In this document: positions 6,438-64,000 of the stretch, one piece after another
Numbering within the stretch: position 1 is the first letter of the stretch
How the letters are laid out: each line of letters begins with the position of its first letter
DNA from: Vicinamibacterales bacterium
GTDB lineage: Bacteria > Acidobacteriota > Vicinamibacteria > Vicinamibacterales > 2-12-FULL-66-21
DNA length: 64,000 nt
Direction of reading: 5' to 3'
Assembly (NCBI GenBank): GCA_048594885.1
Contig: JBMDXB010000082.1
Location: 18,237-82,236 of the forward strand
Translations under genes and position numbers: made by a program
The notes under the pieces: generated by a model
What the model was told of the DNA's origin: nothing
Databases searched by the model: none
The model's input: only the letters and a program-made list of their open reading frames with translations

Positions 6438-7088
6438 TTACCTGCGCGAAGAGGCCCGGGCAAGCCCGGGCCCTACTGAGCCAGAATCTTCCGTAGGGGC
6501 CGGGCTTGCCCGGCCCGCGGCTGAATCCGGATCGTTGTTCGTAGGGGCCGGGCTTGCCCGGCCCGCGGCTGAATCCGGATCGTCGTTCGTAGGGGCCGGG
6601 CTTGCCCGGCCCGCCGCTGTAGGCGCCGGGCTTGCCCGGCCTGCAGCCGTCATCTTCTCAACCAACGCCGCGGCTTCCGCCATCGGATTCTCCTGGATGT
6701 ACTTCCGAATCCGCTCCAGCTCGGCGTCACTTCGAATGACCCGATCGTAATAACTACGCTGCCAGAGCCGCGAGGCGACGAGCCCTTCGCGCCGCGCGAG
6801 AATCGTCGTTCGTGATTTGCACGCCCGCATGACGTCAGGCAGCGACACGGCGACGCCGTCGAAGAGGAAGATCGCGTGCACGTGATCCGTCATGATCACG
6901 TGGTAATCCACTGTTACCGTGAGGAACCGTTGTTCGACTGCACACAGTTCCCGTTCGGCAAGAGCGGCGAGCGAGCCCTGCAGGATGGGACGGCGGTCGT
7001 GTGTGCAGACGGTGATGAAATACGCGCCTGGGGACTTATAGTCAAAGGTGGCGAGGCGAATGCGCCGCATGTTCCGATGACGTCGCAA
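6438..7088 (-). mobile_element. REP-associated tyrosine transposase (RAYT/TnpA-REP, HUH Y1)
   Basis: YFITVCT, MTDHVHAI (HUH), LWQRSYYDRVIR and YIQENP motifs; flanked by GTAG REPs. The start could be ATG 7070. Confidence 0.9.
6453..6642. repeat. GTAG-REP family 1 cluster, consensus GTAGGGGCCGGGCTTGCCCGGCCC (5 copies)
   Basis: Inverted copy at 6453-6476; direct copies at 6493, 6541, 6589 (48-bp period) and 6619. Confidence 0.92.
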
Positions 7089-12247: not shown

Positions 12248-12490
12248 CTCACAGGAGAAACAGGGAAGAGGAGAACAAGTTCTTTGCTCGAGATCGATTT
12301 CAGCGTCGTCATCCGCTCGCGATCCCCGACTCGTAGCGCGGCAGGCAACAAAGAGTTCTCCGCTTCTTCGGTGCTCGGAAATGAGAGCCGCTGGACGGGC
12401 AGACGGCCGGCTGCGCGATCAGGAAGGCACGAAGCCACGAAGACACGAAACCAACAGGGCTTCGTGCCTTCGCGCCTTCGTGTCTTCGTG
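12248..12490. repeat. Two intergenic inverted elements: degenerate purine/pyrimidine arms (12248-12385) and octamer arms CACGAAGN x4 / CTTCGTGN x4 (12420-12490)
   Basis: caggaaggcacgaagccacgaagacacgaaa ... cttcgtgccttcgcgccttcgtgtcttcgtg read directly from the sequence. Confidence 0.75.
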
Positions 12491-13857: not shown

Positions 13858-13995
13858 TGGAAGGAGCCTCGGCGCACCTGCTCATCAACGCCCCCCCGGC
13901 GCCACCGAGGCCCGCTCGGCGGTCTCGCGATGCCCTCCGTTTCTCCGTTTCTCCGTTTCTCTTTTTCAGCATTCAGCATTCAGCATTCAGCATTG
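13858..13995 (+). repeat. Composite repeat copy 1: ~75-bp core + (CTCCGTTT)n + (CAGCATT)n
   Basis: Direct-repeat similarity to 16540-16701. Confidence 0.8.
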
Positions 13996-16539: not shown

Positions 16540-16701
16540 TGGAAGGGAGCCTCGGCCCACCTGCTCATCCACGCCCGCCTCGGCGCCAACGAAGCCCGCT
16601 CGGCCGGCCTCTGATCTCCCTCCGTTTCCTCCTCCGTTTTCTCCGTTTCTCCGGTACTCCGTTTCTCTGTTTCAGCATTGAGCATTCGGCATTCAGCATT
16701 G
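16540..16701 (+). repeat. Composite repeat copy 2; the last CAGCATT-G supplies a TTG start for the next gene
   Basis: tggaagggagcctcggcccacctgctcatccacgcc... followed by CTCCGTTT and CAGCATT units. Confidence 0.8.
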
Positions 16702-18282
16702 CCTCACTACGACGTCATCGTCATCGGCGGTGGCCACAACGGCCTGACGGCGGCCGCGTATCTCGCGAAGGCCGGCCGCAAAGTGCTGGTGCTCGAGCGC
16801 CGCTACGTGCTGGGCGGCGCGGCGGTGACGGAGGAGATCTTTCCCGGCTTCAAGTACTCGGTCGCGTCGTACGTAGTCTCGCTGCTGCGGCCGGAGATCA
16901 TCCGCGAGCTCGATCTGCCGCGGCACGGCCTGGAGATCCTGCCGCTCGACGGCACGTTCACGCCCATGCCGGACGGCAACCACCTGTGGCGCGTCAACGA
17001 TCACGCGAAGACACGGCGGGAGATCGCACGCCACTCGAAGGTCGATGCGGAGGCGTACGACGAGTACGGCAAGGCGATGGTCGAGATGGGCCGCTTCGTG
17101 AAGCCGATCCTCGACATGACGCCGCCCGACCCCACGTCGCTCGATCCGCGCGGCCTCATGGATCTCTTGTTCCTGGGCCGCCGCTTCCAGGCGCTGTCCG
17201 ACCGCGACAAGTACAACCAGGTCCAGCTCATGACGATGAGCGCGGTCGATTTCCTCGACCAGTGGTTCGAGACGGACGTCCTCAAGGCGACGATGTCCGC
17301 GTCCGGGATCATCGGCACGTTTCTCGGCGTGCGGTCTCCCGGCACGGCCTACGTGCTGCTGCACCACTACATGGGAGAGATCGACGGCGCGTTTCGATCC
17401 TGGGGGCTGTCGCGCGGCGGAACCGGCGCCATCTCGAACGCCATCGCCGACGCTGCGCGTGAGGCGGGCGCCGAGATCCGTACGGAGGCTCCCGTCTCGA
17501 AGATCATCGTCAAGGACGCAGCGGCCGGGGGCGTCATCCTCGCGAACGGCGACTACGTCACCGCGAACGCGATCGCGTCGAGCGTCGATCCCAGCCTCAC
17601 CTTCCTGAAGATGGTGGGCGAGGAGCATCTCCCCGGCGAGTTCGTCGAGGACATCCGCCGCTACAAGTTCCGCGGCTCGTCAGGGAAAGTGAACCTGGCG
17701 CTCGACACGCTGCCGGACTTCACGTCGATGCCGGGCCCCGGCGCTCACCTGCGCGGGGCGATCTCGATTTCACCGGCCGTCGACTACATGGAACGCGCAT
17801 ACGACGATGCGAAGTACGGGCGGTACTCGCGACGTCCATATATCGACATCGTCATTCCGAGCCTGACGGACCCGTCCGTGGCGCCGCCCGGCAAACACGT
17901 GATGTCGTGCTTCGTGCAGTACGCGCCGTATCACCTGAAGGACGGCACGTGGGACGAGCACAGCGAGGCGTTCGGCGACACCGTGATCGACACGATTGCG
18001 GAGTACGCGCCGAACATCCGCGACATCATCCTGCACCGCCAGGTCGTGACGCCGCTCGACCTCGAGCGCGAGTGGGGACTCACCGAAGGCAACATCTTCC
18101 AGGGTGAGCTCACGCTGGAGCAGCTCTTCTTCCTCCGCCCCGCGCCCGGTTGGGCTCAGTACCGGACGCCAATTCGCAACCTCTATATGTGCGGATCCGC
18201 GACCCATCCCGGCGGCGGAATCATGGGCGCGCCGGGGAGGAACGCGGCGCGGATGATGCGGCGCGAAGGAGTTAGGAGTTAG
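16699..18282 (+). CDS. Phytoene desaturase-like (CrtI/PYROXD2 family) FAD oxidoreductase A
   Basis: VIGGGHNGL FAD motif, GNIFQGE, LYMCGSATHPGGGIMG. Start TTG 16699 inferred. Confidence 0.88.
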   Translation: MPHYDVIVIGGGHNGLTAAAYLAKAGRKVLVLERRYVLGGAAVTEEIFPGFKYSVASYVVSLLRPEIIRELDLPRHGLEILPLDGTFTPMPDGNHLWRVNDHAKTRREIARHSKVDAEAYDEYGKAMVEMGRFVKPILDMTPPDPTSLDPRGLMDLLFLGRRFQALSDRDKYNQVQLMTMSAVDFLDQWFETDVLKATMSASGIIGTFLGVRSPGTAYVLLHHYMGEIDGAFRSWGLSRGGTGAISNAIADAAREAGAEIRTEAPVSKIIVKDAAAGGVILANGDYVTANAIASSVDPSLTFLKMVGEEHLPGEFVEDIRRYKFRGSSGKVNLALDTLPDFTSMPGPGAHLRGAISISPAVDYMERAYDDAKYGRYSRRPYIDIVIPSLTDPSVAPPGKHVMSCFVQYAPYHLKDGTWDEHSEAFGDTVIDTIAEYAPNIRDIILHRQVVTPLDLEREWGLTEGNIFQGELTLEQLFFLRPAPGWAQYRTPIRNLYMCGSATHPGGGIMGAPGRNAARMMRREGVRS

Positions 18283-18308
18283 GAGTTAGGAGCTAGGAGC
18301 TAGGAGGA
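18267..18308 (+). repeat. Left arm: (AGGAGYT) x5 + AGGAG
   Basis: aggagtt x3, aggagct x2, aggagga; contains the stop of the upstream gene and the RBS of the next. Confidence 0.95.
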
Positions 18309-18311
18309 GAG

Positions 18312-18686
18312 ATGGACCGCGAACCGGCGCGAAGATTCGAAGATCTCGTCGTATGGCAGAAGGGACACGCGCTCGTTCTGCGCGTGTACAAGCTGACCAA
18401 GGAGTTTCCTCGCGAAGAGTTGTTCGGTCTCGTCGACCAGATGCGCCGCGCAGCAGTCTCGGTGCCAGCAAACGTCGCGGAAGGCTTCTCAAAGAGAGGA
18501 CGGACGGACAAGGCACGGCTGATGAACGTTGCCCAGGGGTCGCTCGAGGAACTCAGGTACTACTTCATTCTCGCGCGCGACCTGGCATACCTCCCGGCCG
18601 AGACGAAGTGGCCGGACCTCGATGAGGTTGGCAGGTTGCTCGGAGCGTACGTCCGCGCGTTGCGAGCAGCAGCTCCTAGCTCCTAG
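18312..18686 (+). CDS. Four-helix-bundle protein (23S rRNA IVP / TIGR02436-like family)
   Basis: FEDLVVWQK, FPREELFGLVDQMRRAAVSVPANVAEG and AQGSLEELRYY motifs. Confidence 0.93.
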   Translation: MDREPARRFEDLVVWQKGHALVLRVYKLTKEFPREELFGLVDQMRRAAVSVPANVAEGFSKRGRTDKARLMNVAQGSLEELRYYFILARDLAYLPAETKWPDLDEVGRLLGAYVRALRAAAPSS

Positions 18687-18726
18687 CTCCTAGCTCCTAG
18701 CTCCTAGCTCCTAGCTCCTAGCTCCT
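18671..18726 (-). repeat. Right arm: (AGCTCCT) x8, reverse complement of the left-arm unit
   Basis: Eight perfect heptamers ending 3 nt before ATG 18730. Confidence 0.95.
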
Positions 18727-39795: not shown

Positions 39796-40457
39796 ATGCC
39801 GCGAATCCGCCGCGTCTTTCCGCCCGGGGCTGCCCATCACGTGATCAATCGTGGTAACAAACGGCGAACGATCTTCCAGAAAGATGGTGATTACAAAGCA
39901 TTTCTGCGATTGATGGCGCAGGCGCAACAGCGGTTCCCGTTGAAGATCTTTCGTATTGCCTGATGCCGAACCACTTTCACTTTCAGGTCTGGCCGGCGAA
40001 CGAGGGCGAGGTTCCTGCGTACATGCACTGGCTGATGAATGCGCACGTTCGGCAATATCAGCAGCACTACGAAATCGTCGGCACCGGTCACGTTTACCAG
40101 GGGCGCTACAAGAACTTCGCGATTCAGTCCGACCATCACCTGCTGACGGTGTGGAGATACGTCGAGGCAAATCCGCTTCGGGCATCTCTCGTCCGGCGCG
40201 CCGAACAGTGGCGATGGTCGAGCCTGTCGGAGGACACCACTGTCGATCGTCCGGAGCTGTGCGACGGACCGGTATCGCGGTTTGCGCAGTGGACGGAGTG
40301 GGTCAATGAATCGCTGCCGAAGGAGCAGCTGACGGCGATCAGGTACAGCGTCAGAAAGGGCGCGCCGTTCGGCGACGACGCGTGGACGGCGTCAATGGTG
40401 GAGCAGTACGGCCTCCATTTCACCCAGCGCGGAGGAGGCCGCCCCAAAAAACCGTGA
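39796..40457 (+). pseudogene. Second RAYT-type HUH transposase with a 1-nt frameshift near 39950
   Basis: AGGAGG + ATG 39796 gives MPRIRRV..HHVINRGN..FPLKIF; the next frame gives YCLMPNHFH, GHVYQGRY, YVEANP, WRWSS. Stop lies inside REP triplet C. Confidence 0.88.
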
Positions 40458-58546: not shown

Positions 58547-59533
58547 ATGAGCAGAACAGCGCGCGTGCCGTTTGGGCCGCGGATCGCGGTCCCCTCGCAG
58601 TTCCTCTCGGTGCTCGACTTCGATGACGGGATGCTCGTCGCCTGCCTCGATCTCGCGGCCCAGATGAAAGCGGCGCGCGCGGCCGGCATCGCGCACGACA
58701 AGCCGCTGTCTGGTCTGCACATCGGGCTCCTGTTCGAGAAGCCGTCGCTGCGGACGCGTTCGACGTTCCAGATCGCGGTGCACGAGCTCGGAGGCGACGT
58801 CATCGAGCCGCCCGCCAACGTCGTCCTCGGCGGCCGCGAGACGATCGAGGACGTCGCGCGCAACCTGGAACGCTGGGTGTTCGGCGTCGTGATGCGGACG
58901 TTCGCGCAGTCGAAGCTCGAGGCGTTCGCCGCGGCGGCGCCGCGTCTGAAGGTCGTCAACGCGTTGACCGACGAGGAGCATCCGTGTCAGGCGCTCGCCG
59001 ACTGTCTCACGCTCATCGAAAAGCTGGGGGGTCTGCGGGGCCGCACGATCGCCTACGTCGGCGACGGCAACAACGTCGCGACTTCGCTGGCGCAGGCGGC
59101 GCTGATGCTCGGCGCCAACGTCCGCATTGGATCGCCGCGCGGCTGCGAGCTGCCGGCAACCGTCGTCGACGCCGCTCTTGCCGGTGCGGCGACGGGGGCC
59201 ACGCTCGTCCAGACGAACGATCCGGTCGAGGCGGTGCGCGGCGCCGACGCGGTCTACACCGACGTGTGGACGTCGATGGGCCAGGAGGCGGAGGCCGCTC
59301 GGCGCCGGGCGCTGTTCGTGCCGTATCAGGTGAACAGCGAGCTGATGGCGCACGCGGCGGACGGCGCGCTGTTCATGCACTGCCTGCCGGCGCACCGCGG
59401 CGACGAAGTCACCGACGAGGTGATCGACTCGGGGGCGTCCGTCGTCTTCGATCAGTCGGAGAACCGGCTCCACGTGCAGAAGGCGTTGCTCGCGCTGCTC
59501 GCTGGCCGCTGGCCGCTGATCGCTGATCGCTGA
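58547..59533 (+). CDS. argF: Ornithine carbamoyltransferase
   Basis: FEKPSLRT, HPCQ, DVWTSMG and HCLP motifs. Confidence 0.94.
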   Translation: MSRTARVPFGPRIAVPSQFLSVLDFDDGMLVACLDLAAQMKAARAAGIAHDKPLSGLHIGLLFEKPSLRTRSTFQIAVHELGGDVIEPPANVVLGGRETIEDVARNLERWVFGVVMRTFAQSKLEAFAAAAPRLKVVNALTDEEHPCQALADCLTLIEKLGGLRGRTIAYVGDGNNVATSLAQAALMLGANVRIGSPRGCELPATVVDAALAGAATGATLVQTNDPVEAVRGADAVYTDVWTSMGQEAEAARRRALFVPYQVNSELMAHAADGALFMHCLPAHRGDEVTDEVIDSGASVVFDQSENRLHVQKALLALLAGRWPLIADR

Positions 59534-59551
59534 TCGCTGATCGCTGATCGC
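59501..59551 (+). repeat. Heptamer array GCTGGCC x2 + GCTGATC x5 supplying the argF stop
   Basis: Read directly; TGA 59531-59533 lies inside a unit. Confidence 0.9.
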
Positions 59552-59582: not shown

Positions 59583-60599
59583 ATGCGGCAGGCTGTGATC
59601 CCTCGGCATGGACCGCCGGACGTGTTCGAGATCCGCGAGCGGCCGGATCCCGTTCCGGGCGACGGCGAGCTGCGCGTGCGCGTGCGCGCGATCGGCGTCA
59701 ACTTCGCCGACGTTCTCGCGCGGCTCGGGCTGTACCCGGACGCGCCGCGGCCGCCCGTCGTCGTCGGCTACGAAGTCGCCGGCCACGTCGATGCGACGGG
59801 AGACGGCGTCACCGGCTTCAGCGCCGGTGATCGCGTCGTCGCGCTGACGCAGTTCGGCGGCTACTCCGACAGTGTCGTCGTTCCCAGCCGGCAGGCGTTT
59901 CACTTCCCGGAGAATCTCAGCGACGCGGAAGCGGCGGCCGTGCCGATCAACTACCTGACGGCCGCGATCGCGCTCTACAAGATGGCGGCGCTGGCGCCCG
60001 GCGAGACCGTGCTCGTGCACAACGCGGGCGGCGGCGTCGGCATCGCCGCGACGCAGCTCGCGCGGCTGCGGCGCGCCACCGTCATCGGCACCGCGTCGAC
60101 GCACAAGCACGCCGCGCTGCGGTCGTTCGGCATCGAGCATCCGATCGACTATCGCCACGCGAACGTGGCGGAGGAAGTCCGCAAGCTGACGCGCGGCCGC
60201 GGCGTCGACGTCGTGCTCGATCCGATTGGCGGCACCAGCTTCATCACGAGCTACCGGCTGCTCGCGCCGCTGGGGCGCCTCGTGATCTTCGGCCTCTCCG
60301 ACGCCGCACCCGGCGAGCGCTACAACGCGTGGCGCGCGTTCCGCGCCTGGTGGTCCACGCCTCGCTTCGACCCGATGTCGCTCATCAACCGCAACCGCGG
60401 CGTGTTCGGCCTGCACATCGGCCACCTGTGGAGCGAACGCGCGCAGCTCGTGCCGCTCATGGAGATGCTGATCGCCGAACTCCGCGCCGCCCGCCTCAAG
60501 CCCGTCGTCGCACGGACCTTCCCCCTCGACCGAACAGCCGATGCCCACCGGTTCATCCAATCACGCCAGAATATTGGTAAGGTCGTTTTGACGACATAG
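59583..60599 (+). CDS. MDR-family NADPH:quinone oxidoreductase-like protein (VAT-1-like)
   Basis: GVNFAD, GYEVAG, AGGGVG and NIGKVVL motifs. Confidence 0.9.
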   Translation: MRQAVIPRHGPPDVFEIRERPDPVPGDGELRVRVRAIGVNFADVLARLGLYPDAPRPPVVVGYEVAGHVDATGDGVTGFSAGDRVVALTQFGGYSDSVVVPSRQAFHFPENLSDAEAAAVPINYLTAAIALYKMAALAPGETVLVHNAGGGVGIAATQLARLRRATVIGTASTHKHAALRSFGIEHPIDYRHANVAEEVRKLTRGRGVDVVLDPIGGTSFITSYRLLAPLGRLVIFGLSDAAPGERYNAWRAFRAWWSTPRFDPMSLINRNRGVFGLHIGHLWSERAQLVPLMEMLIAELRAARLKPVVARTFPLDRTADAHRFIQSRQNIGKVVLTT

Positions 60600-60734
60600 A
60601 TCGATTTCGGATTGCCGATCGTCGAGTGCGGATTGACGGGATTGGCGATTGGGGATTGGGATTGAGGGATTGGGGATTGGATTGACGGTTGACGATTGGG
60701 GATTGGATTGACGATTGACGATTGGCGATTGGCG
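60597..60734 (+). repeat. Left arm of a GATTG-based heptamer array (terminal inverted repeat)
   Basis: 60597-60664 matches the reverse complement of 62628-62695 at 66 of 68 positions. Confidence 0.95.
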
Positions 60735-60771
60735 TAGATGCGGTCTCAATCACACGATCGGCGCACGGTTC

Positions 60772-62517
60772 ATGCCTGCCTTGGCATGCCTGGTGTTGGC
60801 AGGCTCCTTACTCCGCGCGGCGCCGCTACGGAACGAGACGCCTCTCACGACGGCTCCGGCCGGACCGTTAACCGTCGTACTGGCACATCGCGACAGCCCG
60901 TACCGTTCACTCGCTCAACAGATTGCCGCGCTCGAGTCCATTCCTGTTGTGGAGTCGCTCACTGAGGCGCTCACACTGGAGCCTGCCTTTCTCCTGTGGG
61001 TGGTTGCACCAACGGAGCTGTCCGACGTAGCCGTCACGGCCTTCAACCGCACGCTCGAACGGGCGTCACCACGTCCTGCGGCAGGGCTCATCACGGCATC
61101 GACGGTCGCTCGCGCCCGCGGTCTCTATGAACGCGCGCGCGTAGCCAGGGGCGACCGGACCGCGACGGTGCTCGGGGAGGACGTCTTCACTGCGGCTGCA
61201 CTCGTCGTGGAGACGACAGCCGACCGCCGACAATCGCGCCCGCTCGCCCGGACAGCAGACATCCTGGGGTTTCTCACGAACGTCGATTACGTCCATTACT
61301 CCGGCCACGGCGGCAACGGCTACTGGCGACCTGTCCCGAACGAGCGATTCGCCGCTCACGATGTGCCGCGCCTAGGGCCGGTCATCGTCAGCACCATGGC
61401 CTGCCAGACGACACGCATGTGGGAAGGCGGTTCGATCGCGCTACGAATGGTCGACGAAGGAGCCGCCGCGTATTCAGGCTTCTATTACAGTCCAATGGCC
61501 GGGTTCCAGATAGGCGAGGAGGACGGGCCGTTCCGCTACAGTTGGCCGCAGGTCCCAATCGGGTACGTCATTGAGGCGATGAACGTCGGGGCTGGGAAAG
61601 GCTACGCGAGGACTCCATTTCATCTGCTCCTCGGAGATCCGCGTATCGCCCTCCGGGAGCAGCCCCCCTGCCGCTTGCTGGACCACGGCGAGTCGGACGG
61701 CGTGCGGCGGGTCTCATGTTCGGATGCACCTGCAGGACTGGTCCCTCTCCGCATTTGGGGAGGAGCCCGGTACGCCTTCGTCGAGATTCCGGGCGTTACG
61801 GCCGTGTGGCGCCAGGAACCGTTCTACAACCGGCGCGTGCAGATGGCGCCGATTGGCGAAGATCTCATCGTCCTCGTGGCCCATCGTGGCGGTGACGTGC
61901 GGATGGCGTTACGGCGCCGCCCACCGCTTGCCTGGCTTGCCGTGGATCCACTGCGAGATGCCCTCGATGATCTCTTGGTCAGCAAGGCTGACCGGCGGCA
62001 CGGCGGGGATGCAATCGCGCTCTTCCTGGCCGCGGTGGCGGCGACAGGCACGGTCCTGCGCGTCAGGCGGAAGCAATTGGGGCGGGCCCATATGGCCGCC
62101 GCCGGCGCACTCGGCGTCGTCGCGGGCCTCCTGCATGCCGCGTACGCGCTCGCGCGGCAGCCGGACGTCGTCGTCGTGGCAAAGGACTTGGTCTTCAGCC
62201 CGCTCGCCGCGGTAGGAACGGGCGTGCTGGCCGCCTGCGGGGCGCTGCTGTTTCAGGCCGCTGCATCGTGGCGCGGACGTCTCCTCGGACTCGTGACCGC
62301 GACATCGGTCGGCTGGATCGGAGGGCTCATCGCCGTGGTCATGGTAAGCATGACGAACAGCGTCATCGCCGCGAGAACGGGCATCGGCGTATGGATCTAC
62401 AGAGCCGACCTCCACCCCTTCATTCTCTCCGCTCTTGGATGCGGCCTCTACGCCCTCGTATTCCTCGCGGCAGCGCGACTGACGGGAAAGGCGCCTATCG
62501 ACTGCAGCGGTCGATAA
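60772..62517 (+). CDS. Putative clan CD (gingipain/C25-like) cysteine peptidase with C-terminal multi-TM domain
   Basis: Signal peptide; YSGHGG (His), TMACQT (Cys) and LLLGDP; ~5 hydrophobic C-terminal helices. Confidence 0.68.
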   Translation: MPALACLVLAGSLLRAAPLRNETPLTTAPAGPLTVVLAHRDSPYRSLAQQIAALESIPVVESLTEALTLEPAFLLWVVAPTELSDVAVTAFNRTLERASPRPAAGLITASTVARARGLYERARVARGDRTATVLGEDVFTAAALVVETTADRRQSRPLARTADILGFLTNVDYVHYSGHGGNGYWRPVPNERFAAHDVPRLGPVIVSTMACQTTRMWEGGSIALRMVDEGAAAYSGFYYSPMAGFQIGEEDGPFRYSWPQVPIGYVIEAMNVGAGKGYARTPFHLLLGDPRIALREQPPCRLLDHGESDGVRRVSCSDAPAGLVPLRIWGGARYAFVEIPGVTAVWRQEPFYNRRVQMAPIGEDLIVLVAHRGGDVRMALRRRPPLAWLAVDPLRDALDDLLVSKADRRHGGDAIALFLAAVAATGTVLRVRRKQLGRAHMAAAGALGVVAGLLHAAYALARQPDVVVVAKDLVFSPLAAVGTGVLAACGALLFQAAASWRGRLLGLVTATSVGWIGGLIAVVMVSMTNSVIAARTGIGVWIYRADLHPFILSALGCGLYALVFLAAARLTGKAPIDCSGR

Positions 62518-62524
62518 TCTGAGA

Positions 62525-62695
62525 TCGCCAATCGCCAATCGCCAATCGTCAATCCCAATCGCCAATCCCAATCGCCAATCGTCAATCCAATCGCCAATCG
62601 TCAATCATCATTCCAATCAGCAATCGCCAATCCCAATCCCCAATCGCCAATCCCGTCAATCCGCAATCGACGATCGGCAATCCGCAATCGATCTA
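62525..62695 (-). repeat. Right arm of the heptamer array (CAATCGC/CAATCCC/CAATCGT)
   Basis: Inverted relative to 60597-60734; ends on the TAG of the S9 gene. Confidence 0.95.
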
Positions 62696-64000
62696 GCTCG
62701 TAATCTTCGCCCCCCCTGCCCCGAGGAACTTGGCGAGAAACTTCTCCATGCGGTCCAGGGTGTAGATCCAGCGGCTGTGGAGCATCGACTCGTGGGTGTC
62801 GTCCGGAAACACGATCAACTCGTGATAGACGTCCCGCGCGCGGAGCAGTTGCACCAGGCCCGTCGTCTGCTGGAACGCGACGTTGCGGTCGTCGTCTCCG
62901 TGCACGAGCAGGACGGGCGACTTCCAGCCGTCGACGGCGCCGATGACCGACGATTTGTATGACGTCGCCTCCGGATCGAGCGAGCTGCCCCACAGGTGCA
63001 CGCCGGCGAGATCGACGCCGGCCTTGAAGATGTCCGAGTTGCGCGCGAGCGCCTGTGCGGTGAGCACGCCGCCGTACGACAGGCCCCAGATGCCGACGCG
63101 GTTCGGATCGACGTCCGGCCGCGACTGCAGGTACTTCCCGCCGGCGACGACGTCCTGGTATTCGGCGTTGCCGCTGCCGCCGGTGTTCGGCGCGTTGCGG
63201 AACGAGCGGCCGTAGCCGACGCCGCTGCGGAAGTTCACCGACAGCACGACGTAGCCCTGGCTCGCCAGCCATTGATTGATGCCGTACGCCCAATGATAGA
63301 AGTGCATGTAGTGATACCCGAGCAGCATCTGCCGCACGGGACCGCCGTGCACGAACACGATCGCCGGCCGCCGCTCGCCAGGCTTGATGTTCTTCGGCAG
63401 GAAGAGCTGGTTGTGGATCTCGAGGCCGTCGGCCGCTTTCGTGATCACCAGCTCCGGATCGACGTGCAGGTCCGCCGGGAATCCCTTCATCGTCGCCGGG
63501 AAGATCACCTTCTGCGCGCCCGCGACCGGCGCGACGCCATGTTGCGCGCCGCGTACGGGCTTCAACGAAGCGGATCCTGACGACAGCGGCCACAGCCCAA
63601 TCGATTGCGGCAGCCTCCAGTCAGCGCTCAGCGTCGCGAGCAGCTTGCCGGACGCGAGCGGCGTCGGATAGGTTTCGATGCCGCGGCCGGTCGTCACCTG
63701 CGCCGGCGTGCCGCCGGAGACCGCGACCGCCCAGATGTGCCGCCGCTCGATATCCTGCGCGTTCGTGCAGTAGTACAGCGTCCTGCCATCGGGTGAGATC
63801 GAGACATCCGTCTGCGCCTCGATCATTCCGTTCGTCGTCGTCAGCAGCACGGGCCGCGACGACGGTGAGGAGATGTCGAGCGAATAGTACCGTTCCCACT
63901 CGTCGGGCGGCGCGGACGGCGTTTCGGTCTGCGCGCCGCGGCCGCCACGCCCGCCGAAGCCGACGTTGAACGGGAAGATGACGAAATTGCCGGTGAGCCG
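62693..64000 (-). CDS. S9 prolyl oligopeptidase family protein (5' part outside the window)
   Basis: VHGGP, GLSYGG, HGDDDRNV and DTHE triad motifs; frame open to the window end. Confidence 0.92.
   Translation of the reverse strand, partial: RLTGNFVIFPFNVGFGGRGGRGAQTETPSAPPDEWERYYSLDISSPSSRPVLLTTTNGMIEAQTDVSISPDGRTLYYCTNAQDIERRHIWAVAVSGGTPAQVTTGRGIETYPTPLASGKLLATLSADWRLPQSIGLWPLSSGSASLKPVRGAQHGVAPVAGAQKVIFPATMKGFPADLHVDPELVITKAADGLEIHNQLFLPKNIKPGERRPAIVFVHGGPVRQMLLGYHYMHFYHWAYGINQWLASQGYVVLSVNFRSGVGYGRSFRNAPNTGGSGNAEYQDVVAGGKYLQSRPDVDPNRVGIWGLSYGGVLTAQALARNSDIFKAGVDLAGVHLWGSSLDPEATSYKSSVIGAVDGWKSPVLLVHGDDDRNVAFQQTTGLVQLLRARDVYHELIVFPDDTHESMLHSRWIYTLDRMEKFLAKFLGAGGAKITS

Follow-up and report, generated by a model that had tools for sequence, protein, structure and literature searches.

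The 64-kb window analysed here (64,000 nucleotides, positions counted from its first letter) is part of contig C158 of a soil Vicinamibacterales genome (G000; 7.46 Mb, 66.8% GC, 176 contigs). It contains a 2.1-kb unit (60597-62695) in which one gene, for a predicted gingipain-like membrane protein, is enclosed by two long inverted arms built of heptamers. The unit lies between two convergent genes. On its left is a zinc-type medium-chain dehydrogenase/reductase (MDR) gene (59583-60599, plus strand; Pfam ADH_zinc_N, E = 3.4e-22, and ADH_N, E = 1.4e-15), and on its right is a gene for an S9 prolyl-oligopeptidase-family hydrolase (62693-63850, minus strand; Pfam Peptidase_S9, E = 6.3e-36), hereafter S9, whose open reading frame (ORF) stays open to the window end at 64000. 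The unit itself comprises the left or F arm (60597-60734, plus strand; 138 bp of GATTGNN units), a 37-nt plus-strand spacer from the inner end of this arm to the start codon (60735-60771), the loop gene or cargo (60772-62517, plus strand; 581 aa), and the right or R arm (62524-62695, minus strand; 172 bp of the complementary NNCAATC units). The measured arm lengths bear out the ~140 and ~170 bp of GATTGNN units that an earlier note on this DNA had read from the letters.

Tandem Repeats Finder (TRF) delimited one period-7 array of 14.1 copies at 60640-60734 and a second of 24.6 copies at 62524-62690. The motif GATTGNNGATTG has 21 matches in the window, all within the two arms (shuffle expectation 0.09), with 7 on the plus strand (60640-60731) and 14 on the minus strand (62529-62689). 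The longest inverted pair connects 60591-60664 with 62628-62701 over 74 nt at 95% identity and is slightly longer than the previously noted 68 bp with two mismatches. Both ends of the unit (TAGATCGATT...AATCGATCTA) fall on stop codons of the convergent neighbours, as the earlier note had also observed: the MDR stop TAG (60597-60599) forms the first 3 nt of the unit, and the last 3 nt of the right arm are the complement of the S9 stop TAG at 62693-62695. Toward the loop, the inner ends of the arms are mirror-symmetric, with GATTGGCGATTGGCG on both sides, matching over 15 nt in register and over 22 nt at a one-unit offset; this 15-mer has only 14 occurrences in the genome. A promoter scan of 60400-62900 returned no sigma-70-like site, and a terminator scan of the same interval returned one terminator-like site, located inside the cargo ORF, and no consensus terminator.

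The unit belongs to a multi-copy family of hairpins. Scanning the genome for runs of at least four GATTG or CAATC units yielded 78 arrays, which include 29 neighbouring pairs, all arranged F then R. The arms of 26 of these 29 pairs are less than 200 bp apart, and a typical copy is an imperfect palindrome of 200-570 bp. The 18 lone arrays are divided into six at contig ends and 12 internal ones. Copies share an outward-facing terminus of ~45-65 nt at both ends, (R)TC-GATTGCGGATTGCC-GATCGTC-GATTGCGGATTGACGG-GATTGGGGATTGGGGATTGGGATTG, whose 22-nt core is found at 114 places in the genome with at most four substitutions. An exact 19-mer of this core is listed at 46 places, and a control pattern at 0. 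Within the genus, pattern matches number 108 in the source genome vs 16 in a 100% complete relative (G001), while the exact 22-mer, a pattern too strict to map the range of the family, occurs among 185,579 species genomes in one other metagenome-assembled genome (MAG; locus L013).

At C158, the 22-mer core carries no substitution at the right end and one at the left. The outer terminus of the right arm is identical to the family consensus, and the outer ~65 nt of the left arm represent the same terminus with two private changes (GATTTCGG and GAGTGCGG). The earlier note had taken the outer match, irregular unit variants included, as a sign that one arm was copied from the other. This does not follow, since the outer 74 nt are the consensus terminus of the family and an inner array resembles its own partner no more closely than it does the arrays of other copies. 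The shared terminus explains both the 68-bp match and the irregular units, and the two mismatches are those private to the left end. With the outer 60 nt taken away, the rank of the own partner among inner arrays spans 1 to 23 of 23 across copies, with ranks of 5 and 1 for the unit at C158.

Stop-codon abutment is likewise a family trait and not special to C158. In a rough heuristic ORF test on 24 copies, a gene 3′ end was found within ~50 nt of 21 of the 48 family termini, and at 12 of these 21 ends the stop codon finishes, by the same heuristic, 2-4 nt before the first GATTG. In the flanks of the 24 copies no fixed direct repeat is evident; TA follows ~6 of 16 right ends by eye, with the element boundary uncertain by 2-9 nt. 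The alternative reading of the TAG ends as a TA target duplication is not confirmed by these flanks. None of the family loops contains a transposase, their contents being the 23S_rRNA_IVP (IVP) gene, an IstB/DnaC-type ATPase gene, the C25-like gene or short unrelated sequence, and no array lies within 1.5 kb of the four genome matches to Y1_Tnp, the one transposase family searched. One of these four Y1_Tnp matches (IS200/RAYT-type, 31.8 bits) is located in the window itself at 39948-40169 (G000:C158:58184-58405).

The lone GATTG arm at G000:C57:42853-43013 begins at the stop codon, TGA, of a gene whose product terminates in ...GGMGGMY and reads as GroEL-like; the arm is followed by a terminator-like hairpin and a T run, which places it within the 3′ untranslated region. 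At G000:C103:14860-15140 a GATTG arm is nested in an outer GCTGAAT/ATTCAGC palindrome, and at G000:C109:9416-9660 a long CCAAAGG/CCAAGGA array abuts a lone CAATC arm. A (CGCTGAT)x8.4 array is situated at 59493-59551 of the window, directly upstream of the MDR start codon (59583), and the same unit adjoins the lone GATTG arm at G000:C74:12440-12490.

Most loops are short: of the 23 copies examined, 20 have loops of 2-181 nt and 14 have loops of 2-26 nt, and the short loops hold unrelated sequence. Only three are long: 1789 nt at C158, 1001 nt at C174 and 534 nt at C35. These three loaded copies follow a common layout, with ~40-110 nt from one arm to the start codon and 0-6 nt from the stop codon to the other arm. 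The symmetry of the inner ends seen at C158 is absent from the C35 and C174 copies.

The C35 loop encodes a four-helix-bundle protein of the 23S_rRNA_IVP family (PF05635, E = 2.4e-14), and a tblastn search with this protein against all family loops of the genome found C35 only. GATTG arms surround a PF05635 gene in six genomes (G000:C35, L013, G004, G008, G013 and G014), the proteins being 42-55% identical. Between G000:C35 (L092, 6000-14500) and L013 the flanking genes are orthologous (65-80% identity) and the IVP gene has the opposite orientation; the loop has thus flipped, presumably through recombination between the arms. The GATTG-IVP units of G004, G008, G013 and G014 have different flanks.

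The C174 loop encodes an IstB/DnaC-type AAA+ ATPase (PF01695, E = 2.4e-15). This gene is present in 29 of 31 genomes, including all 25 high-quality ones, mostly as a single copy, and it is flanked by the same two genes in all seven loci compared, forming a conserved three-gene block. GATTG arms stand on both sides of it in three genera (G000, L103; G011, L105; G013, L109), one small arm is found in G001 (L111), and none in G012, G005, G029, G032 and G016. The outermost arm units at this locus are GATTGCA in G013 and G011 and a GATCGTC-type terminus in G000, as if the arms had been homogenised within each genome. To judge from this synteny, the arms at the ATPase locus bracket a gene that never moved. 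A role of the C174 ATPase as a transposition helper was considered and rejected, the gene being a single-copy core gene in conserved synteny.

The cargo at C158 is of a different kind. Its probable start is the ATG at 60772, which gives a 581-aa protein, the version found in the protein collection and used in the alignment with all homologues; an alternative start, TTG at 60715, falls inside the left arm. The AlphaFold2 model (predicted local distance difference test score 88.1, predicted template modelling score 0.87) comprises a signal peptide, an alpha/beta domain, a beta-sandwich and seven long helices within residues 386-571, which constitute a predicted helical membrane domain. In a Foldseek search with this model the top five matches are the gingipains Kgp and RgpB (E = 1.3e-9 to 7.6e-8, probability 1.00 each), followed by CHAT, separase and legumain, all of clan CD. 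The sole Pfam match is PF01364 at 21.0 bits, under the 23-bit cut-off, and a profile search of Protein Data Bank (PDB) sequences with the cargo family returned no gingipain and chance-level matches only. The 22 homologues are metagenomic, 37-65% identical and 547-601 aa long, and four of them bear a precomputed PF01364 tag. GHG (H179), C211, GAAAYxGF and GDPR are invariant in all 23 aligned sequences, the cargo included.

On the evidence of the model, the cargo has a gingipain-like (C25, clan CD) fold with H179 and C211 as candidate catalytic dyad. The earlier note's assignment to this clan, made from short motifs, is thereby upheld by structure prediction and Foldseek as well as by the invariant GHG and C211. 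Cargo and gingipains have the fold of the catalytic and Ig-like domains in common at ~10-13% identity, and the GHG histidine and the cysteine after a beta-strand, both invariant in the cargo family, may correspond to the catalytic residues of gingipains. They differ in that the adhesin and type IX secretion system domains of gingipains are replaced, in the cargo, by a multi-helix membrane domain at the C-terminus, and in that the cargo comes from a soil acidobacterium.

Composition and distribution set the cargo apart from its surroundings. The GC content at third codon positions (GC3) is 0.747 in the cargo vs 0.891 in MDR and 0.896 in S9, so that the weaker GC3 bias suspected in the earlier note is confirmed by the codon-bias check. 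A score modelled on the codon adaptation index places the cargo at the 0.1 percentile of long ORFs, a percentile exaggerated by a reference set filtered at GC3 > 0.75. The gene is single-copy in its genome and was found neither in the 40 other relatives searched, including the complete same-genus G001, nor in 400 other genomes of the class; in the phylum, 3 of 400 further genomes, from three different families, have homologues at 36-37% identity. By these comparisons the cargo is a foreign, horizontally acquired gene. None of the 31 metagenomic homologue loci (GC 0.40-0.70) is flanked by short-period arrays on both sides, and neither MDR nor S9 adjoins the gene at any of them; two loci (L042 and L053) each have one 5-6-nt array directly upstream of the gene. 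Because no homologue locus is armed on both sides, the gene family does not move together with arms, and those at C158 are the host's own.

Heptamer hairpins around PF05635 genes form a wider class in this genome. Among its 11 PF05635 matches, 10 have short-period arrays on both sides, each locus with a different unit, e.g. AGTAGGC/ACTGCCT, GGGTAAA/TTACCCT or AATGCTG/CATTCAG. An automated test (periods 6-9, at most one mismatch) identified six of these loci as inverted same-unit pairs. Across 30 relatives of the order, inverted same-unit arrays are present at 16 of the 28 PF05635 loci fetched from genomes other than the source, and several of the remaining loci are cut by contig ends. In the source genome TRF detects 1004 arrays (period 6-9, 3.5 or more copies each) that total 60 kb, and adjacent same-unit arrays less than 200 bp apart are inverted in 130 cases vs direct in 1. 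For the other unit families, same-unit pairs 0.7-6 kb apart with no close partner are inverted in 10 cases vs direct in 11; the large-loop inverted pairs of these families, which are not enriched over direct pairs, were dropped as candidate loaded elements.

The window holds further repeats. A second heptamer-armed unit at 18267-18726, in the IVP-bearing form usual for the class, consists of (AGGAGTT)x5.7 (18267-18306), a PF05635 gene (match 18339-18605, ORF ~18312-18686) and (AGCTCCT)x8 (18671-18726). Two composite arrays, CTCCGTTT then TTCAGCA, are located ~2.6 kb apart in direct orientation (13935-13994 and 16619-16700); with 117 arrays, TTCAGCA/AATGCTG outnumbers every other unit family of the genome. 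At 12423-12490, (GAAGCCAC)x3.9 and, immediately after it, (CTTCGTGC)x3.9 make up a hairpin of octamers with nearly no loop, and at 6476-6619 a 48-bp tandem repeat (2.7-3.1 copies, 97% identity) has a GC-rich palindromic core (GGGGCCGGGCTTGCCCGGCCC).

Among the closest known architectures is the intervening sequence (IVS) of 23S rRNA. In the sections drawn on for the Coxiella IVS, terminal inverted repeats form a stem whose loop contains an S23p ORF; heptameric repeats are variable, and RNase III excises the element (PMC4990558). As far as these accounts go, ORF-bearing IVSs of Coxiella burnetii and Leptospira resemble the unit at C158 in stem, loop gene and heptamers, and PF05635 is common to the rRNA IVS ORFs and the usual loop gene of the hairpins described here. 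The IVS resides in rRNA and has a 28-bp stem and a ~120-aa protein, whereas the C158 unit lies between protein genes with 138- and 172-bp arms and a 581-aa protein. The C158 arms consist nearly entirely of heptamers, and cutting of the unit by RNase III would follow by analogy only. The intergenic heptamers of Xanthomonas (GGGAATC) and of cyanobacteria (Nostoc) are also comparable. The cited portions describe arrays of a 7-nt unit, with 70 (Xcc) and 75 (Xac) facing pairs on opposite strands and function unknown (PMC4692102). For the Xanthomonas heptamers these portions report no conserved terminus, loop gene or PF05635 link, unlike the GATTG family (PMC4692102). A review, in the part drawn on, places PF05635 beside Avd, a protein of diversity-generating retroelements (PMC10053308). 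Our literature search, which covered papers outside their supplementary repeat-locus tables, found none tying heptamer arrays to PF05635 genes or to other genes in such loops.

The history of the site can be followed in two relatives. G007, from another genus within the same family, also has convergent orthologues of MDR (75% identity) and S9 (69% identity), ~185 bp apart. Because these neighbours are convergent there too, the MDR-S9 adjacency is probably ancestral, with arms and cargo as an insertion. The G007 spacer (L004 2519-2700, G007:C18) contains a small unrelated heptamer palindrome, CGTGGTT.../...AACCACG, with ~90 nt between its arms. The MDR-S9 site attracts heptamer hairpins of different families in G000 and G007. 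In G001 the adjacency is lost and another gene stands opposite the S9 orthologue (81% identity). A few nucleotides past its stop, G001 has a 28-nt hairpin, GTCGATTGCGGATCG-A-CGATCCGCAATT, made of the two outermost GATTG-element termini only, which we read as what is left of a hairpin that stood at this gene end. The stop codons of G000 also differ from those of its relatives. S9 (...AKITS*) falls short of its orthologues in G001 (...AVITER*) and G007 (...KITTEDK*) by 2-4 residues, and the MDR C-terminus KVVLTT* has equal length in G007, G011 and G012, where the stop is TGA instead of the TAG of G000. Both observations fit an insertion of the termini at the two stop codons, which these termini would now supply. 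At C69, where a 20-kb query with two elements was compared with G001, the neighbouring genes differ at the sole alignable site.

The arms have a strong potential to pair. Their duplex energy is -238 kcal/mol vs -78 +/- 7 kcal/mol for a shuffled right arm, and in the minimum free energy fold of the 2.1-kb RNA 129 of the 138 left-arm nucleotides are paired with the right arm. We favour, with a probability of about 0.55, an explanation in which the unit at C158 is a gene-bearing copy of the resident heptamer-hairpin family, a foreign protease gene having come to lie at the apex of a pre-existing hairpin whose arms act as an RNA stem and not as a means of delivery. A resident GATTG hairpin would already have stood between the convergent MDR and S9 genes, and the foreign gingipain-like gene would have joined at its apex, the apex of a long palindrome being a putative fragile site. 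The symmetric inner arm ends are what such an apex insertion into one hairpin would leave, and the arms would not have been the deliverers of the cargo. A transcript from MDR or from the spacer could then form an arm stem of ~135 bp and loop the gene out in the manner of an IVS. RNase III or a similar enzyme may cut this stem and thereby release the loop message, or insulate it from its neighbours, by analogy with IVS excision. By the same analogy, the arms probably work as an RNA stem and not as transposon ends, although in DNA inverted arms would also permit the loop to flip.

Several points weigh against this explanation. An empty hairpin allele of the MDR-S9 spacer was not found in the source species, the palindrome in the G007 spacer is unrelated, and the adjacency is lost in G001. 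Of the empty or differently filled alleles that the earlier note suggested seeking in relatives, G007 provides a differently filled spacer. The apex at C158 retains no trace of a mechanism by which a 1.8-kb gene was joined, and the inner arrays of the unit show no significantly greater similarity to one another than to those of other copies (ranks 5 and 1 of 23). Nor is the order of events fixed: the arms at the ATPase locus surround an unmoved gene, so the arms at C158 could equally postdate the cargo.

This last possibility amounts to an alternative in which the foreign gene reached the site between MDR and S9 by another route and the arms were recruited afterwards, as at the ATPase. The ATPase, present in 29 of 31 genomes and syntenic in 7 of 7 loci with arms variably present, provides a precedent, and the arm-start and stop-arm layout common to all three loaded GATTG copies fits it as well. 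We nevertheless consider such bracketing in situ unlikely, as it requires two coordinated arm gains, no known mechanism adds inverted arms on both sides of a gene, and the relic hairpin of G001 and the symmetric inner ends better fit a single pre-existing hairpin. That the two arms are unrelated lone arms which arose by chance at the 3′ ends of MDR and S9, with the gene between them coincidental, seems very improbable. The 12 internal lone arms, several with a terminus at a stop (the groEL-type gene at C57, the arm at C151), and the balance of inverted and direct pairs 0.7-6 kb apart in other families speak for it. However, random placement of 12-16 lone arms predicts 0.009-0.017 F..R pairs within 2.1 kb, which makes a chance juxtaposition unlikely. 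The probability of at least two pairs is ~4e-5 to 1.4e-4 where two non-IVP pairs are seen (C158 and C174), albeit under a crude uniform-placement model, as arms prefer gene ends. The symmetry of the inner ends also stands against chance.

In the earlier note the arm architecture was proposed as a gene-capture vehicle able to carry arbitrary cargo. Its observational part stands in so far as genes as different as those for IVP, ATPase and the C25-like protein are bracketed. The idea of a cassette that captures and moves genes, mobilised in trans for lack of its own transposase, is not supported, and we regard it as quite improbable. It could draw on the many copies with conserved termini at unrelated sites, the strong difference in copy number within the genus (108 vs 16 pattern matches), the non-syntenic GATTG-IVP units of G004, G008, G013 and G014, and the loss of 2-4 codons from S9 at the terminus, as an insertion would cause. 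Yet the cargo is single-copy and none of its 31 homologue loci has arms on both sides, the loops lack a transposase and the four Y1_Tnp genes have no array within 1.5 kb, target duplication is inconsistent (TA at ~6 of 16 right ends), and the ATPase copy is syntenic across genera.

Threading of the cargo between MDR and S9 through a shared repeat during metagenome assembly was also weighed. The assembly has 176 contigs, six lone arms at contig ends indicate that the family breaks assemblies, the right terminus is multi-copy at 10-50x, and the composition of the cargo is atypical. Against this stand Logan contigs from 4 runs, all of a single study that may be the source sample, so that they are not independent. 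They bridge the junctions of MDR with the left arm (60068-60656), of the left arm with the cargo (60635-60790 and 60693-60891) and of the cargo with the right arm (61788-62554). Word depth in the left arm is that of a single copy (~4-5x, like the flanks), as opposed to 10-50x over 62528-62775, and the shared terminus of ~46 nt is shorter than a read. An artefact of this kind is accordingly highly unlikely. No listed Logan piece joins the right terminus to S9, and none contains a joint that points to an inversion or an empty site. A joint from 62555 to 62653 with 27 other letters was rejected as an allele, since it matches the arm of an L013-like organism. The layout of a gene within arms is real; its placement beside S9 rests on the assembly.

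Among mobile and repetitive elements, the foldback (FB) transposons of Drosophila have long inverted arms of sub-repeats with variable length, conserved outer ends and occasional unrelated DNA in the loop. Their arms often abut, as in the GATTG copies, yet they are eukaryotic and have no sequence relationship to the family; transposition and target duplications are documented for FB and not shown here. Bacterial MITEs (miniature transposable elements with inverted repeats), the repetitive extragenic palindromic (REP) elements with REPIN and BIME, and Correia-type elements are non-coding multi-copy hairpins at gene ends that can supply stops or processing sites. The GATTG family shares with DNA transposons and MITEs the presence of terminal inverted repeats common to many copies at unrelated sites. 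In contrast to MITE, REP and Correia elements, however, its arms are tandem arrays that differ in length between copies, and no transposase-bearing parent, no association with REP-associated tyrosine transposases (RAYT) and no consistent target duplication were found.

Taken together, the evidence speaks for a gene-bracketing hairpin rather than for a vehicle of gene capture and movement. New here is the content of the loops, namely, beside IVP-bearing and empty loops, a protease-like gene of 1.75 kb and foreign origin and a core gene for an AAA+ ATPase. One may speculate further that heptamer hairpins are a general, portable module of bacteria that can bracket any gene, from a core ATPase to a freshly acquired protease, with a message excised by RNase III, a flippable orientation, an apex that is a preferred landing site for foreign DNA, and an IVP/Avd-like protein as the trans factor that builds or maintains the arms. 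We consider this generalisation doubtful at present.

Intergenic heptamer arrays, as in Xanthomonas and cyanobacteria, and the protein family of the 23S rRNA IVS are both long-standing puzzles. The GATTG arms are able to enclose genes other than the IVP gene, and the enclosed core gene that never moved argues for a bracketing or processing device and not merely for the ends of a mobile cassette. The foreign gene exactly at the apex of a hairpin suggests that foreign DNA may gain entry at long palindromes. With IVP-bearing, core-gene-bearing, foreign-gene-bearing and ~26 empty copies of one family in one genome, the material for testing these ideas is at hand.

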